A stretch of 64,000 nt of DNA from Vicinamibacterales bacterium (lineage in GTDB: Bacteria; Acidobacteriota; Vicinamibacteria; Vicinamibacterales; UBA8438): positions 4,695,164 to 4,759,163 of the forward strand of contig OZ241898.1 in assembly GCA_965203525.1 (NCBI GenBank). Reading direction: 5' to 3'. Under the pieces are notes generated by a model. That model was not told the origin of the DNA. It saw only the letters and a program-made list of their open reading frames with translations, and made no database searches. Positions 46,995 through 51,514 of this stretch are shown here, piece by piece (position 1 is the stretch's first letter; every line of letters begins with the position of its first letter). The position numbers were made by a program, and so were the translations under genes.

Positions 46995-48394
46995 GCGGGC
47001 AACGCCTGGCGCGCCGGCCGGCGGCGCGCGGCGGGCGGCTCCGCCCGGCCGGGGCATCCGTCGAGGGCAGGATTTTCGGCGCGGCGGCGGGCGTCGGGGG
47101 GTTGTCCGCCGGCCTGTCCGTCCTGTCCATGGGCAAGGAAATGTTCGTGGCCGCGTCGTTCGGCACCGACGACGCCCTCGACGCCTTCGTCGTCGCGTTG
47201 CTGCCCGTGTCGTTCGCGGTCACCGTCGTCGCCGAGGCGTTCTCGTCCGCCTTGATCCCGACGTACGTGCAGGAGAGGGAGCGGCGCGGACGAGCGGCGG
47301 CGCAACGCCTGTTTTCGGAAGCCGTGGCCGTGGCCGCGGCGTGGCTGCTCGCCGTCGCCGCCTCGCTCGCGCTGCTGGCGCCGCACTTCCTGCCGCTGCT
47401 CGGTCTCGGCTTCGCCGCCGGCAAGCTGGCGCAGACGCAACGGCTCTTTCTGCTGCTGCTGCCGGTCGTCGTCCTCCGCGGCGTCACGACCATCTGGTCC
47501 GCGGCGCTCCATGCCGGCGAGCGCTTCGGCCTGGCGGGCGCGGCGCCCCTGCTGCTGCCGGCCGCCACGGTCGGCGCGCTGCTCGTCTGGCGCGCGGACC
47601 CGGCCGTCGACGCCCTCGTGGCCGGCGCAGTCGGCGGGCTGGCGCTGCAACTGGCGCTGCTGGGGTGGGGGCTGAAACGGCGCGGGACGGCGCTGGCGCC
47701 GCGCTGGCGCGGCGGGAGTCCCGCCCTGCGCCGGGTGATCGGCCAGTATCTGCCGCTGGTGGCCGGGGCGTCGGTCATGGGCGGCGCGGCGCTGGTGGAC
47801 GGCGCCATGGCGGCGACGCTCGCGCCGGGCAGCGCCGCGGCGCTGCACTACGGGAACAAGGTGGTCGCCGCGGCCCTGACCGTCGGCGCCGGGGCGCTGG
47901 GGACGGTGGTGCTGCCGGTGTTCTCGCGGTTGATCGGCGCGCGGGACTGGGGCGCGGTGCGGCGCGTCGTCAGAACGTACAGCCTGCTGATCCTGCTGGT
48001 GACCGTTCCGGCCGCGCTGGCCATCTGCGTCCTTTCGGAACCGCTGGTGCGCCTGATCTTCGAACGCGGGGAGTTCACGGCGGCCGACACCCGGCTCGTC
48101 GGCCGGGTCCAGGCGCTGTACGCGTTGCAGATCCCGTTCTACGTGCTGGGGATTCTGTTCGTGCGCCTCATCTCGGCGGCGGCGGCGAACCGCGTCCTCC
48201 TGTTCGGATCGTTGCTGAACCTGACCTTGAACGTCGTGCTGAACTACGTGTTCATGCGGCGCCTGGGGGTCGCGGGCATCGCCCTGTCGACCGCCTGCGT
48301 GTACGCCGCGTCCTGCGCCTTCCTGGTGACGGCCGCCTTCAGGATGCTTCCGGGCCTGCGGGGAGGCCGGCCGCGCGACGCGCGATGCGGTTGA
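46991..48394 (+). CDS. MurJ/MviN-family (MOP superfamily) flippase
   Basis: LSMGKEMFVAASFGTDDALDAFVVALLPVSF...SSALIPTY is a typical MurJ N-terminus, followed by about 12 or more TM helices. A TTG at 46991 overlapping the upstream stop is proposed as the start. Confidence 0.75.
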   Translation: MSGQRLARRPAARGGRLRPAGASVEGRIFGAAAGVGGLSAGLSVLSMGKEMFVAASFGTDDALDAFVVALLPVSFAVTVVAEAFSSALIPTYVQERERRGRAAAQRLFSEAVAVAAAWLLAVAASLALLAPHFLPLLGLGFAAGKLAQTQRLFLLLLPVVVLRGVTTIWSAALHAGERFGLAGAAPLLLPAATVGALLVWRADPAVDALVAGAVGGLALQLALLGWGLKRRGTALAPRWRGGSPALRRVIGQYLPLVAGASVMGGAALVDGAMAATLAPGSAAALHYGNKVVAAALTVGAGALGTVVLPVFSRLIGARDWGAVRRVVRTYSLLILLVTVPAALAICVLSEPLVRLIFERGEFTAADTRLVGRVQALYALQIPFYVLGILFVRLISAAAANRVLLFGSLLNLTLNVVLNYVFMRRLGVAGIALSTACVYAASCAFLVTAAFRMLPGLRGGRPRDARCG

Positions 48395-49488
48395 CGCTCG
48401 TCATCTGGTCGCTGTCCTGCGGCGGGGCGGAGCGGGTCCTGTCCCGGATGGCCAACCACTGGGCGGCGCGGGGGTGGGAGGTCACGTTGCTGACCTTCGA
48501 CGGATCCGAGCCGCCGTTCTTCGATCTGCACCCCGCGGTGCGGCATCGCCCGCTCGGCCTCGCGACGTCGCGCGCCTCGGTCCGGAGGCTGGCGAGACTG
48601 CTGCGGGTCCTGCGGCGCGCCATCCGGGAGAGCGCCCCGCGGGCGGTGATCTCCTTCATGGACCAGATCAACGTGCTGGTGCTGCTGGCGACGCGCGGAC
48701 TCGGCTTGCCGGTCGTCGTCTCCGAGCGGGTCTGGCCGGCGCACCACGCAATCGGCCGGCATTGGAACGTTCTGCGGCGGTGGACGTATCCCTGGGCCAC
48801 GCGTCTGGTCGTGCAGCACCGGGACGTCCTGCAGTATTTCGCCGAGCCGGTGCGGAGAAAGGGGCGCGTCGTTCCGAATCCGGTGGCGGCGCCCCCGGCC
48901 GCCCGCGCCGCGCCGCCCGGGCGGCGCCCGAACACCGTCGCCGCGATGGGGCGTCTGGATCCGCAGAAGGGGTTCGACGTGCTGCTGCGGGCGTTCGCGG
49001 ACGTTGCGCCCGAGTGTCCGGAATGGTCCCTGGTGATTTGGGGCGAAGGAGAGCTGCGCGGCGCGCTGGAGCGTCTGCGGGACGAGCTCGGGCTCGGCGG
49101 GCGCGCATTCCTCCCGGGGCGGACGCGGGAGCCCTTCGGGACGATGCGGCAGGCCGACCTGTTCGTGCTGTCGTCACGCTACGAGGGCTTTCCCAACGTG
49201 CTGTGCGAGGCGATGGCGTGCGGGCTGCCGGTGGTGAGCGTCGATTGTCCGGTCGGTCCCTCCCGGATCGTCCGGGACGGGGTCGACGGGCTGCTCGCGC
49301 CTCCCGGCGACCCGCGGGCGCTGGCGGACGCCATGCGGCGCCTGATGCGGGACGCGCCCGGCCGGCGGCGTCTGGCGGCCCGTGCGCCGGAGGTGGTGGA
49401 GCGCTTCGGCCTGGAGAAGGTGATGCGCGCGTGGGATGGGGTGCTGCGCGAGGCGCTGCGAGCGCAGGGGGCGTTCCCGCGCCCTTGA
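48385..49488 (+). CDS. GT4-family glycosyltransferase
   Basis: MRLTLVIWSLSCGGAERVL...SSRYEGFPNVLCEAMACGLPVVSVD. Confidence 0.85.
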   Translation: MRLTLVIWSLSCGGAERVLSRMANHWAARGWEVTLLTFDGSEPPFFDLHPAVRHRPLGLATSRASVRRLARLLRVLRRAIRESAPRAVISFMDQINVLVLLATRGLGLPVVVSERVWPAHHAIGRHWNVLRRWTYPWATRLVVQHRDVLQYFAEPVRRKGRVVPNPVAAPPAARAAPPGRRPNTVAAMGRLDPQKGFDVLLRAFADVAPECPEWSLVIWGEGELRGALERLRDELGLGGRAFLPGRTREPFGTMRQADLFVLSSRYEGFPNVLCEAMACGLPVVSVDCPVGPSRIVRDGVDGLLAPPGDPRALADAMRRLMRDAPGRRRLAARAPEVVERFGLEKVMRAWDGVLREALRAQGAFPRP

Positions 49489-49523
49489 TCGGCGCCGGCC
49501 GGACGCCGGCGGGGGCGCCGGCC
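49477..49523. repeat. 47-bp direct repeat, left copy (covers the GT4 stop codon)
   Basis: ccgcgcccttgatcggcgccggccggacgccggcgggggcgccggcc, identical to 50135-50181. Confidence 0.9.
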
Positions 49524-49560
49524 GCGCGTATTATGATGCGCACGGGAGGGAGAAGGTCCA

Positions 49561-50037
49561 ATGGGTACGCACGACGCGATCTGGCTGGCGCTTCTGAACA
49601 GCGCCAGATGGGAACGCTACTACAGGATCCTGACGGACCGGTTCACGTGGTGGGAGACGGTCATCCGGTCCGTGCTGCTCGCTTCGGCGATGGGCTCCAT
49701 CTCATCGTTCCTCTCCGACATGCCGGCGGCCGTCGGAGTCGTGTTCGGGGTCTTCGTCGCCGCCGCGGTGATCGTCGACTTCGTCGTCAGGCCGGGGCAG
49801 ACCGCCGCCACGCTCGCGCTGATCCGCGACGAGTGCGGGCGCATGCGGCTGACGCTGGACGATCTGCTGCGCCGGTATCCCGGAATGGCCGACGCCGATG
49901 CGAACTGGATGCTCAAGACCCTGAACTCCCACCTGGAGGAAGTCACGGCGAAGGATCCGACGACCTGCCGCGACAAGCTCAACGAAAAGACGACCAGGGA
50001 CACCTTTTCCGAGATGGAGCACTTGTATGCGTCGTAG
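49561..50037 (+). CDS. Two-TM protein of unknown function (158 aa)
   Basis: A GGGAGGGAGAAGG Shine-Dalgarno-like stretch lies upstream. There is an N-terminal helix (WLALLNSARWERYYRIL), two TM helices (VIRSVLLASAMGSISSFL and AAVGVVFGVFVAAAVIVDFVV), and a helical C-terminal domain. GC looks lower than in the flanks. Confidence 0.65.
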   Translation: MGTHDAIWLALLNSARWERYYRILTDRFTWWETVIRSVLLASAMGSISSFLSDMPAAVGVVFGVFVAAAVIVDFVVRPGQTAATLALIRDECGRMRLTLDDLLRRYPGMADADANWMLKTLNSHLEEVTAKDPTTCRDKLNEKTTRDTFSEMEHLYAS

Positions 50038-50134
50038 CGGCGAAGAGACGAGAACCGGCCCACCCATACCGGCCGGCGTTCCGATCCCGAAGCCGCCGGC
50101 GCCGAAGCCTGCGCCGCCGCCGCCGCCACGGCCG

Positions 50135-50181
50135 CCGCGCCCTTGATCGGCGCCGGCCGGACGCCGGCGGGGGCGCCGGCC
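50135..50181. repeat. 47-bp direct repeat, right copy
   Basis: Identical to 49477-49523. Confidence 0.9.
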
Positions 50182-50200
50182 GGACGCCGGATCGCTCCGG

Positions 50201-51514
50201 CTACTCGTCGAGGAGGCACCGCGTGAAGCGGTGCTTTCCCTGGGCGGTCTTCGGAATCCGATCCACGTACCGCCATTCCACCCGGCACCCTCTTCCCAGG
50301 GCGCCGCGTATCCCGGCCTCGACCTCCGCCACGTCGTCCTCGTCGATTCCGGCGCACCGCACGACCGAGATCCGGAGGTGGTCGTAGTCGACCTGATCGA
50401 CCTGGAACTGTTCGATCCAGCTTCGAAAATAGAACAGGTGCGTGAAGAACTCCCCGTGCACGACCGCGCCGTCCCGCGAGCGGAAATGGTCCGTGACGCG
50501 GCCCGTCAACTTCTCCAGAACCGGCAGGGGGGATCCGCAGCCGCAAGGGTGGAAGCGCATCGCTCCGGTGTCTCCGACGTCGTAACGGATCAGGGGCATG
50601 GAATAGTTGTGCAGATTGGTGACGATGATTCTTCCCTCTTCGCCGTCGCCCGCCGGCCGGCCCGCGTCGTCCACGATTTCGACGACGTTGTTCATGATGA
50701 ACACGTGCCGGCGGCCCGCCCGGCACTCGCCGGCGATCGCTCCGACCTCCCTGGAGCCGTAGTAGTCGTACGCCTTCGCGCCGAACCGCTCCTCGATCTC
50801 CTCCCGCATGAAGTCACGCAGCATTTCCGCCGCGGAATGGAGAAATCGCGGCCGTGGCAGGCGCACTCCGTGCTTCCGGGCCGCCCGCGCCATCTGGTGC
50901 AGCGAGCCGGCGTATCCGGCCACGTAATGCGGGCGCCACGATCGCAGCCGCTCGACGTGCTCCAGCCAGCGTCGGTCGTTCGTCATCTCGAACGTATCGA
51001 GCAACAGGCGGTTCTGCAGGTAGCACCCGATCCGCTTGCGCCACGGCTTCGCCGCCGCGAGGTCGCGGTCGGACCCCCAGAGCCAGGCGTTCCTCACGGC
51101 GTACCGCTCCACGCCCAGGAACTCGCGAAAATAGTACTCGTGCGTCGCCTCGGCCTGGAGCGCGTACTCGGCATCCTGGATCAGGACCACCGGCCGGCCC
51201 GTCGAGCCCCCGGACGTGTTTTCATATCTGGCCGCCGTCGGTCCGGCGCTCTGCAACGCGGCGAACTTCCGGCGGATGACGTCCTTCGTCAATATCGGCA
51301 GGCGCTCGAGTTCCCGGGACTTCGCCAGGAGCCCCGCGTAGTGTTCGTTGTGGCCGGCGGCGAACGAAAGCAGCTTTCCGAGACGTGCGCGGGACGCGGC
51401 GAAGGGATCCGCGCCGGTCATTTCGCGGACGGACTCGTCGATGTCCCGGTAACGCCGCCGCACCGCTTGAAGCAGACGAAACTTCAGCTTCGAGGCGCGC
51501 TCACGCCATCGCAT
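50201..51514 (-). CDS. Phenylacetate-CoA ligase-like adenylate-forming enzyme (CapK/F390 synthetase family)
   Basis: ENTSGGSTGRPV AMP-binding motif; size and layout match PaaK/CapK-like proteins found in EPS loci. Confidence 0.8.
   Translation of the reverse strand: MRWRERASKLKFRLLQAVRRRYRDIDESVREMTGADPFAASRARLGKLLSFAAGHNEHYAGLLAKSRELERLPILTKDVIRRKFAALQSAGPTAARYENTSGGSTGRPVVLIQDAEYALQAEATHEYYFREFLGVERYAVRNAWLWGSDRDLAAAKPWRKRIGCYLQNRLLLDTFEMTNDRRWLEHVERLRSWRPHYVAGYAGSLHQMARAARKHGVRLPRPRFLHSAAEMLRDFMREEIEERFGAKAYDYYGSREVGAIAGECRAGRRHVFIMNNVVEIVDDAGRPAGDGEEGRIIVTNLHNYSMPLIRYDVGDTGAMRFHPCGCGSPLPVLEKLTGRVTDHFRSRDGAVVHGEFFTHLFYFRSWIEQFQVDQVDYDHLRISVVRCAGIDEDDVAEVEAGIRGALGRGCRVEWRYVDRIPKTAQGKHRFTRCLLDE

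Follow-up and report, generated by a model that had tools for sequence, protein, structure and literature searches.

A divergent SLATT-like two-transmembrane protein and an overlapping polyproline micro-protein as a putative mobile gene pair in a Vicinamibacterales polysaccharide locus

Relation to known SLATT systems

SLATT proteins (SMODS- and SLOG-associating 2-TM effector domain) belong to the commonest predicted effectors in bacterial immunity. They are predicted to act in conflict systems by forming pores, and are normally coupled to a signal-producing partner. In SLATT-RT (DRT10) systems, where the partner is a reverse transcriptase (RT), the stop of the SLATT gene overlaps the start of the partner gene, and how SLATT proteins are activated has been stated to be an open question (bioRxiv 10.64898/2026.04.29.721553). 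Here we describe a 658-bp module in a 64,000-nucleotide stretch of DNA (the window) from contig OZ241898.1 of a Vicinamibacterales bacterium. The module holds two open reading frames, ORF1 for a protein of 158 aa with two transmembrane (TM) segments and ORF2 for an overlapping polyproline micro-protein of 39 aa. We regard it with good confidence as a self-contained, mobile two-gene unit made up of a SLATT-fold protein and a translationally coupled micro-protein. On balance, and with less assurance, we favour the fuller reading in which this inserted unit acts as a stand-alone conflict or addiction module.

ORF1 is like the SLATT two-TM effectors (Pfam SLATT_1 to SLATT_6 and DUF4231; NCBIfam NF033632 and NF033634; the '2TM' effectors of CBASS; DRT10/UG17) in its length of ~160 aa, N-terminal helix, tight two-TM hairpin and helical cytoplasmic tail, and it likewise often lies in defence or mobile neighbourhoods. 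As in SLATT-RT, an overlap of stop and start couples the gene to the partner that follows it. The nature of the partner differs: in SLATT systems it is a signal-making enzyme (CD-NTase/SMODS, SLOG, TIR or RT), whereas here it is a polyproline peptide of 27-65 aa. The present system is known from its genes alone; no non-coding RNA was detected. A search of full-text literature found no paper linking SLATT or two-TM effectors with a polyproline partner; the effector class is known, but the partner, and hence the architecture of the system, appears to be undescribed.

Type II toxin-antitoxin systems with a membrane toxin are similar in being two-gene, coupled, promoter-carrying units shorter than 1 kb that turn up one copy at a time in intergenic sites, in islands and in toxin-antitoxin clusters, sometimes with short flanking duplications. 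As in such systems the coupled small genes occur together, ORF2 following ORF1 in 25 of 27 loci. Here, however, the small partner lies downstream, lacks a DNA-binding fold, and is lost or frameshifted in several loci in which ORF1 is intact. The geometry is also strikingly similar to that of the Rz/Rz1 two-component spanins, in which a small proline-rich ORF in the +1 frame is embedded in, or overlaps, the gene of a TM-plus-helical protein (the i-spanin, with one N-terminal TM segment); this comparison was prompted by bioRxiv 10.64898/2025.12.20.695498. A spanin was excluded, as ORF2 (MRRSGEETRTGPP...) has no hydrophobic signal, lipobox or Cys, the two TM segments of ORF1 place both of its ends on the same side of the membrane, and neither a nearby holin or endolysin gene nor any phage match was found.

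ORF1 (positions 49561 to 50037, plus strand) has a GC content at third codon positions (GC3) of 0.90. It is preceded by the Shine-Dalgarno-like purine stretch GGGAGGGAGAAGG (49544 to 49556), which an earlier note on this DNA had pointed out, and, 24 nt upstream of the gene, by the AT-rich box TATTATGAT (49529 to 49537, plus strand), a candidate -10 element of the module's own. TATACT or TATTAT boxes likewise lie upstream of the homologues at L011 and L024 (such numbers denote the contigs and loci compared), and a GGAGG...TCCAATG block is kept in L002, L003 and L010. A scan for consensus sigma-70 sites gave no match, and no consensus promoter or terminator was found. The AlphaFold2 model of the protein is all-helical (pLDDT 78, pTM 0.65; helices at residues 3-51, 56-76, 80-108, 111-129 and 138-157). 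Model and hydropathy together give a long N-terminal helix, with the invariant motif ARWxRYY, that runs on into TM1 (residues ~34-52, nt 49660-49716), followed by a 4-residue loop, TM2 (residues ~56-76, nt 49726-49788) and a C-terminal domain of three helices. This layout, which the earlier note had read as an N-terminal helix, two TM helices and a helical tail, is that of the SLATT fold.

Relatives of ORF1 are numerous and diverged. A word-indexed search returned only eight clusters at 90% identity, and a profile search of 1.84 billion representatives found 491 relatives at E <= 1e-3 (179 at E <= 1e-10), nearly all of 155-180 aa and matching over their full length. Among 89 sampled family members, Pfam models matched as SLATT_1 in 20 (best 5.3e-8), SLATT_4 in 20 and DUF4231 in 10, and NCBIfam models as SLATT_4 in 64 (best 1e-9) and SLATT_1 in 54. 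One member of the close family matches SLATT_1 at 2.2e-4, several members match the PADLOC CBASS '2TM effector' models weakly, and those inspected individually score 13-17 bits against SLATT cut-offs of 25-27. When the ORF1 model was compared with BFVD by Foldseek, a check that the earlier note had proposed, annotated SLATT proteins made up 10 of the top 25 matches, 8 of these 10 at a probability of 0.95-1.00; those at ranks 1, 4, 6, 7, 9, 15, 18 and 25 have probabilities of 0.92-1.00 and query-normalised TM-scores of 0.43-0.56. By predicted fold and by family, ORF1 is a divergent and unannotated branch of the SLATT superfamily that falls below the curated sequence thresholds. The guess of a SLATT/DUF4231-like protein in the earlier note is thus supported indirectly, through relatives and fold, the window's own ORF1 having no direct match. 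Two observations on the family stand apart: TIGR04402 ('mobilome CxxCx(11)CxxC protein') gave weak matches in 16 of the 89 members (alignment A2; best 2.5e-4), and the ORF1 homologue of L030 is apparently split (L030:207-2552 and L030:4986-5249), its N-terminal match lying at least ~2.4 kb upstream of the C-terminal piece, as if the gene had been interrupted by an insertion.

The 16 matches among GTDB species representatives are all in Vicinamibacterales or Acidobacteria genomes, the group from which the window, too, is likely to come. We often found the pair in regions of defence, toxin-antitoxin or mobile genes. In L009 it is part of a BREX region and follows an NTase-HEPN gene directly; in L010 it has three tyrosine recombinase genes on one side and Cas3 on the other. 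PIN/RHH, HicAB and Uma2 genes surround it in L014 and L027, and in L011 it adjoins a PadR gene with a DDE transposase gene ~3 kb off. Its neighbours are a restriction-modification pair and IS1595 in L042, ApeA-HEPN in L044, and a PLD nuclease and an NDT-like protein in L045. In L041 it is flanked by IS3 and DDE elements, and in L001 MqsA is near. The only constant neighbours of ORF1 and ORF2 are each other, with one copy per locus, and across ~27 loci no SMODS/CD-NTase, SLOG, TIR or RT partner is consistently adjacent.

The insertion between the GT4 and CapK-like genes

In the window, the module lies at one end of an exopolysaccharide locus. Upstream is the final plus-strand gene of that locus, a GT4 glycosyltransferase gene of 367 aa (48385 to 49488; Pfam Glyco_trans_1_4 6.9e-39, Glycos_transf_1 3.4e-37), which is also called in sibling contigs. 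Downstream, on the minus strand, is a convergent gene for a CapK-like acyl-CoA/adenylate-forming ligase of 437 aa (50201 to 51514; NCBIfam PaaK/F390-synthetase-type matches), on whose orthologues PF27533 CapK_C is recorded. A perfect 48-bp direct repeat, CCGCGCCCTTGATCGGCGCCGGCCGGACGCCGGCGGGGGCGCCGGCCG, brackets the module, positions 49477 to 49524 being identical to 50135 to 50182, so that the two copies start 658 bp apart. The left copy takes in the last 12 nt of the GT4 gene, with its stop codon, and extends into the GC-rich DNA of the intergenic hairpin; it is the native sequence, because relatives carry the same sequence downstream of GT4. The right copy provides the last three codons and the stop of ORF2 and ends 18 bases short of the 3' end of the CapK-like gene at 50201, which is the right border of the target. 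The repeat had no match in 100 dinucleotide shuffles and, allowing up to 3 mismatches, has no further copy in the window; a partial third copy of 19 nt (89% identity) lies at 50174 to 50192.

These data show a two-gene module of 658 bp inserted in the 37-nt intergenic hairpin (the GCGCCGGCCGGACGCCGG hairpin) that separates the convergent GT4 and CapK-like genes. The insertion, which the earlier note had placed after the last GT4 gene, is read from three things: the repeat duplicates the GT4 3' end and the hairpin, one sibling contig (L037) keeps the whole target, and homologous pairs lie elsewhere in unrelated contexts. Base composition does not help. The GC content of the insert is 0.66, where GT4 has 0.74 and the window as a whole 0.72, and so is lower than that of its upstream flank as had been noted, but it does not differ from the downstream genes (0.66-0.67). 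Since the insert thus agrees with these genes, and the GC3 of ORF1 is typical of host genes, composition is no marker of foreign origin.

A public assembly collection has the exact ORF1 protein in 29 blocks, from which 22 contigs were read and 10 displayed; the latter represent at least six samples and are the output of three pipelines (ENA short-read scaffolds, ENA long-read-style contigs and Logan). All 10 have the order GT4-ORF1-ORF2-CapK with an ORF1 identical to that of the window, and the feature is therefore not an assembly chimera. The exact CapK and GT4 proteins of the window are not on record in exact-protein look-ups. The repeat is present in every one of the 10, but its length varies: the exact repeat is 33 bp in L031 and L032, 26 bp in L033, L035, L036 and L040, 21 bp in L034, and 17 bp in L038 and L039. 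The perfect repeat of 47 bp in the earlier note is thus perfect, as claimed, but its length (48 bp by our count) is particular to this assembly. In all 10 sibling contigs the right copy is 23 bp shorter than in the window; the missing stretch, CGGGGGCGCCGGCCGGACGCCGG (50168 to 50190), duplicates sequence found after the left repeat, lengthens the window's repeat from 33 to 48 bp and generates the partial third copy. It looks like the product of slippage or conversion between the two repeat copies.

The remaining sibling, L037, differs on its left side. Upstream of ORF1 it reads GT4-stop-CCCTTGATCGGCGCCGGCCGGACGCCGGATCGCTCCGGCTACTCGTCGAGGAGGCACCGCGT: the end of GT4 is followed by the 37-nt spacer and then by the final ~21 nt of CapK, and only after these does the cassette begin. 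The duplication thus extends from the stop codon of GT4 to within the 3' end of CapK (63 bp exact, ~67 bp with one mismatch). As far as can be judged from this one contig, its left junction is an image of the uninterrupted GT4/CapK empty site, GT4...CCCTTGATCGGCGCCGGCCGGACGCCGGATCGCTCCGGCTACTCG...CapK, which is inferred from this duplication only. The empty site that the earlier note had suggested searching for is therefore seen as an image, but not as a contig of its own. The other sibling repeats can be derived from that of L037 by a 56-bp deletion between two CGGCGCCGGCCGGACGCCGG copies, and conversion in the opposite direction would also be possible. We take the repeat length to have been remodelled since the insertion, by slippage or conversion between copies, to 17-33 bp in most strains, 48 bp in the window and ~67 bp in one strain. 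As nine contigs have 17-33 bp and L037 ~67 bp, the repeat is not a fixed attachment (att) site or target-site duplication. Our conclusion is that it is probably a duplicated piece of the target, an insertion or recombination scar with plastic ends, and neither a target-site duplication of fixed length nor a defined att core.

Known classes of small mobile DNA were compared with this arrangement. A transposon or insertion sequence (IS) was rejected, the duplication being strain-variable at 17-67 bp, with no terminal inverted repeats in the window and no transposase within the 658 bp. So was an integron gene cassette: the boundaries are direct copies of the target, the junction sequence has no visible attC (GTTRRRY-type inverted repeat), an inverted-repeat scan found only weak GC-rich pairs (73-89% complementary), and there is no recombinase or integrase inside the cassette or, in annotated sibling contigs, within 3-6 kb. 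Rfam gave no match, and the repeat region folds no better than its shuffles (z -0.8 to -1.3).

A closer likeness is to islets at the 3' ends of tRNA or other genes with att-type repeats (CIME-like), and the repeats could accordingly be the attL and attR of an integrase-mediated element of which decay has left only a minimal, trans-mobilisable, CIME-type cassette; such an element carries a copy of the gene's 3' end, so that the target gene stays intact. The repeat does restore the GT4 stop codon. At L024 an insert of 1128 bp, made up by the pair, adjoins the tRNA-Arg(CCT) 3' end. The 58-bp repeat that flanks it has its 4 mismatches all at the edges, around an exact core of 41 bp, which is the pattern that recombination between similar att sites would give, and at L010 the pair adjoins the three tyrosine recombinase genes. 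We nonetheless think this origin unlikely. Besides the lack of a recombinase near the cassette, the L024 insert holds no integrase remnant that we could find, the repeats of the window, L024 and L027 have no core in common, the repeat length varies among strains with an identical ORF1, and at ~18 of the 21 loci examined the pair is not flanked by any repeat as long as 20 bp. At L027 it is a 75-bp fragment of a Uma2-like gene that is duplicated on the far side of the pair. An excised circular form of the unit would join the ORF2 tail to CGGGGGCGCCGGCCGCGCGTATTATG.

Other repeats were seen at some of these loci. A 24-bp unit, GCCCGTCCTTCCGCCTGCCCCGCC, stands three times in tandem inside or beside the Uma2-like gene (L027:3429-3502). 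Direct repeats of ~270 bp, 6.4 kb apart (L026:21-290 and L026:6468-6735), bracket a region with a degenerate copy of the module and appear to be duplicated nucleotidyltransferase-like coding sequence. Downstream of the module in L025 are exact repeats of 174 and 91 bp, 1.1 kb apart (L025:8404-8577 and L025:9537-9710), which are probably tandem paralogous genes.

A second lineage places further DNA in the same gap. Its ORF1 (P0001), 97% identical to that of the window, is on seven contigs, six of which were displayed (L001-L006; ~94-96% nucleotide identity to the window). The contigs long enough to show it (L001-L005) have ~150 bp of extra leader upstream of ORF1 and a gene for a B12-binding radical-SAM protein of 502 aa between ORF2 and CapK. 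This gene is in a 1.7-kb segment (L002:6526-8318, and likewise in L001, L003, L004 and L005) that is bracketed by 34-51-bp direct repeats of the ORF2 tail and opens with an exact (21-23 bp), then degenerate, copy of the GT4 3' end; past the radical-SAM gene the ORF2 tail and the GT4-end copy come again, in the same fusion as at 50088 to 50182 of the window. The segment appears to be a second cassette nested within this hot spot. Because the nested segments each carry bounding repeats of 30-50 bp, we read the gap between GT4 and CapK as a recombination hot spot. Either the window type has lost the radical-SAM gene or the other lineage has gained it. That ORF2 is the precursor of a ribosomally synthesised and post-translationally modified peptide (RiPP) for this enzyme was rejected, as ORF2 is everywhere with ORF1 and the radical-SAM gene in one lineage only. 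The extra leader (L002:5831-5984, against 49538 to 49542 of the window), part of which (GGGAGAC..TCCGTGACCAGCC..) is common to the distant locus L010, may be a conserved 5' regulatory element of the module.

The same position of the pair in every contig of the species group, the ~95%-identical radical-SAM lineage included, could also mean that it is a native exopolysaccharide accessory, a small membrane regulator or anchor with a proline-rich spacer, and that the repeat arose by no more than local duplication, the intergenic region being GC-palindromic and prone to recombination; the junctions are indeed low-complexity GC palindromes that are clearly undergoing slippage. This is improbable in view of the homologues in 16 other Vicinamibacterales species and in distant taxa, outside polysaccharide loci, and of L037, which indicates that the GT4-CapK junction existed without the pair.

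The surrounding locus varies as well. Strains with an identical ORF1 carry one GT4 gene or two, four contigs (L033, L035, L036 and L040) having two in tandem (~621-1724 and 1828-2928), and some strains have a methyltransferase gene in the polysaccharide locus (L002:2197-3060), which indicates strain-level shuffling of polysaccharide genes. In L001:7886-9708 the CapK and DUF362 genes are replaced by small ORFs, among them one for an antitoxin of the MqsA type, and only a truncated radical-SAM gene (354 aa) is present, which again shows this end of the locus to be hypervariable.

The polyproline micro-gene

ORF2 (50027 to 50146, plus strand; MRRSGEETRTGPPIPAGVPIPKPPAPKPAPPPPPRPPRP) is in the +1 frame relative to ORF1 and overlaps its last 11 nt. 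Its ATG stands 8 nt ahead of the ORF1 TAG (ATGnnnnnTAG) and is built from the rare Tyr codon TAT and the following G, its conserved motif GPPIPAG is at 50057 to 50077, and its TGA (50144 to 50146) is inside the right repeat copy. The earlier note had seen this 39-codon ORF, its overlap with the ORF1 stop and the origin of its own stop codon; what the comparison of loci adds is that it is conserved and coding. The product is cationic (7 K+R against 2 D+E).

We found a polyproline ORF after the ORF1 homologue in 25 of the 27 distinct loci, which range from 43 to 73% GC and down to ~20% ORF1 identity. Downstream of every close homologue examined is a +1-frame ORF of the same design (for example MCPDGADTRTGPPIPPGIPIPRPPSPPPSPPPPPPRPPRR in L009, MSPSTRVGPPLPPGRPMPPPPPPPPKK in L010 and MTIRQSPGPPLPPGVARPVPPPAPTPPPPPAPAPPPPEHRPGD in L011), and that of L024 has 13 consecutive Pro. 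ORF2 also follows distant members (~20-30% ORF1 identity, in genomes of 43-63% GC), such as L043 (MNTAHRTQQQPLREERGWPPRPSNVSPPPPPPPPPPPPPKTGSK), L042 (...PPPQIPPPPPPPPPSPPPSQNE), L044 (...GKPARPGKTPPPPPPPQQKPKPQEPPPKDGKK), L047 (...GGYPPRPSTPKPPPPPPPPPKKE) and L041 (MRKDRGLPRPTSPSPPAAPPSPPAPTPPSPPPP...), its length ranging across loci from 27 to 65 aa. The start codon, ATG or GTG, is at -8 from the ORF1 stop in at least 21 loci. Among 18 tabulated loci it is always formed from an NNT codon (TAT in nine, CAT in five, CGT in four), despite a GC3 of ~0.9 in the high-GC loci.

Variation within the motif GPPxPPG falls almost only on the third positions of the ORF2 frame (mean entropy by codon position 0.38/0.17/1.30; 15 distinct sequences). 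As an empirical null, 369 GC3-supported ORF ends from the same loci have a mean of 4.5 Pro per 35 codons in the +1 frame; 12 or more Pro occur there in 22 of the 369, and 21 of these 22 are ORF2. Across the whole window in six frames, only 2 of 127,762 windows of 39 codons have 17 or more Pro and no stop; one is ORF2, and the other is on the minus strand near positions 300-600. Runs of 9-13 Pro persist in DNA of 43-45% GC. Judged by comparison across loci, ORF2 is a real, conserved coding gene and not a composition effect, because its variation falls on third positions, its start is fixed, it stands out from the empirical Pro null and its Pro runs are kept in low-GC DNA. It is probably translated by coupling to ORF1. 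The pair is accordingly a conserved unit that gene callers have missed; it is unannotated because they skip the micro-ORF and because ORF1 has no Pfam family. ORF2 itself has no match in Pfam, PADLOC or NCBIfam.

Other arrangements of the two frames were considered and rejected. A programmed frameshift that fuses ORF1 to ORF2 does not fit, there being no conserved slippery motif at the stop and always a start codon; none of 18 longer family members inspected is a natural fusion of ORF1 with polyproline; and an antisense poly-Gly ORF is at odds with the sense frame, which keeps I, L or V at the variable position of the motif and has conserved start and stop positions. In L038:2594-3210 and L039:2599-3215, where ORF1 is identical to that of the window, a 1-base deletion in the C-run of GPPIP frameshifts ORF2; this is either a natural ORF2 knock-out strain or one sequencing run assembled twice.

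Proline-rich antimicrobial peptides (PrAMPs) carry motifs of the YLPRP type, and those of insects and mammals target the ribosome. The PrAMP Onc112 is VDKPPYLPRPRPPRRIYNR (bioRxiv 10.64898/2025.12.20.695498). The products of ORF2 resemble such peptides in sequence likeness only, with LPRPT in L041, GWPPRPS in L043 and GYPPRPS in L047, G-x-P-P/A-R-P motifs, polyproline tracts and a cationic character. A secreted-peptide system, with ORF2 as a peptide of this kind and ORF1 as its dedicated pore or immunity protein, is highly improbable: ORF2 lacks a signal peptide, a leader and a processing site, the loci have no consistently linked gene for a transporter or protease, and runs of 7-13 Pro are unlike known PrAMPs. 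That ORF2 is not a gene at all, being a C-rich cis RNA or DNA element (Rho-utilisation site or terminator) or a by-product of GC content, or that the whole feature is an assembly artefact, is hardly credible, since high GC, a mildly negative GC skew over 49900 to 50300 and the ease with which ORFs stay open in 72%-GC DNA are outweighed by the three-base periodicity of conservation, the conserved start, the Pro runs at 43-45% GC and the composition null, by a tract that is not G-poor, belongs to no Rfam family and folds no better than shuffled sequence, and by the same arrangement in at least 10 independent contigs.

A possible role for the pair

If ORF1 is, as its fold suggests, a membrane-permeabilising effector, the ORF2 peptide would be its partner or regulator, restraining or otherwise tuning the pore. 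Ribosomes stall at consecutive prolines, which call for EF-P (PMC6023141). A peptide like ORF2, which is short, probably unstructured (a polyproline-II type helix) and probably short-lived, would be exceptionally hard to translate, and since Pro runs need EF-P its level could track the elongation capacity of the cell. When phage takeover, stress or loss of the module's mRNA made the supply fall, the pore would be freed or triggered, and dormancy, abortive infection or addiction could follow. We offer this mechanism, in which the peptide restrains or tunes the pore and reports translation capacity, tentatively, as possible rather than probable. Speculative, too, is the wider proposal of a widespread class of stand-alone mobile modules whose pore is controlled by an EF-P-dependent micro-protein and not by a nucleotide signal, and which insert at terminator or tRNA 3' regions and leave duplications of 30-70 bp.

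The reading of the pair as a mobile SLATT-type effector module needs to be interpreted cautiously, as several findings weigh against it. The window's ORF1 has no Pfam, NCBIfam or PADLOC match even at E <= 1-10 and does not reach the curated SLATT threshold, the E-values of the SLATT matches in Foldseek are modest (0.016-0.5), and a fold search of the PDB with the model gave no match, so that the link of ORF1 to SLATT appears to be a transitive one with a fold match. No nucleotide-, DNA- or signal-producing partner accompanies the pair, which sets it apart from all characterised SLATT systems. L018 lacks ORF2, L026 has lost part of it, and a frameshift disrupts it in L016, L027, L046 and L038/L039, with ORF1 seemingly intact in each (some of the frameshifts may be assembly errors), which argues against ORF2 as an indispensable antitoxin. 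The defence contexts are observations at individual loci, and some contexts are neutral: between ribBA and ffh (L007), with a sulfatase and a glyoxalase (L047), and in the polysaccharide locus of the window. Relatives were not found in viral and phage collections (IMG/VR contigs with alignments A1 and A4; INPHARED with P0027) or on plasmids (PLSDB with P0029, the window's ORF1 and P0027). No actual contig with the empty site was found, and the 21-mer from the end of CapK had 0 matches in JGI metagenomes; the cassette may have been inserted by any of several routes.

The 48-bp repeat that first drew attention to this locus is the least remarkable part of it. A SLATT-like protein is here paired with the simplest conceivable partner, a peptide dominated by consecutive prolines, and the pair is kept across genomes of 43-73% GC in a family of ~500 representatives. 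ORF2 is a clean case of a conserved overlapping micro-gene found from sequence alone, and the locus shows that small cassettes move in and out of polysaccharide loci in uncultured Acidobacteriota from soil. Should the peptide gate the pore, the pair would be a minimal and experimentally tractable model of SLATT activation, and it may be a direct link from the status of translation elongation to abortive infection or addiction.

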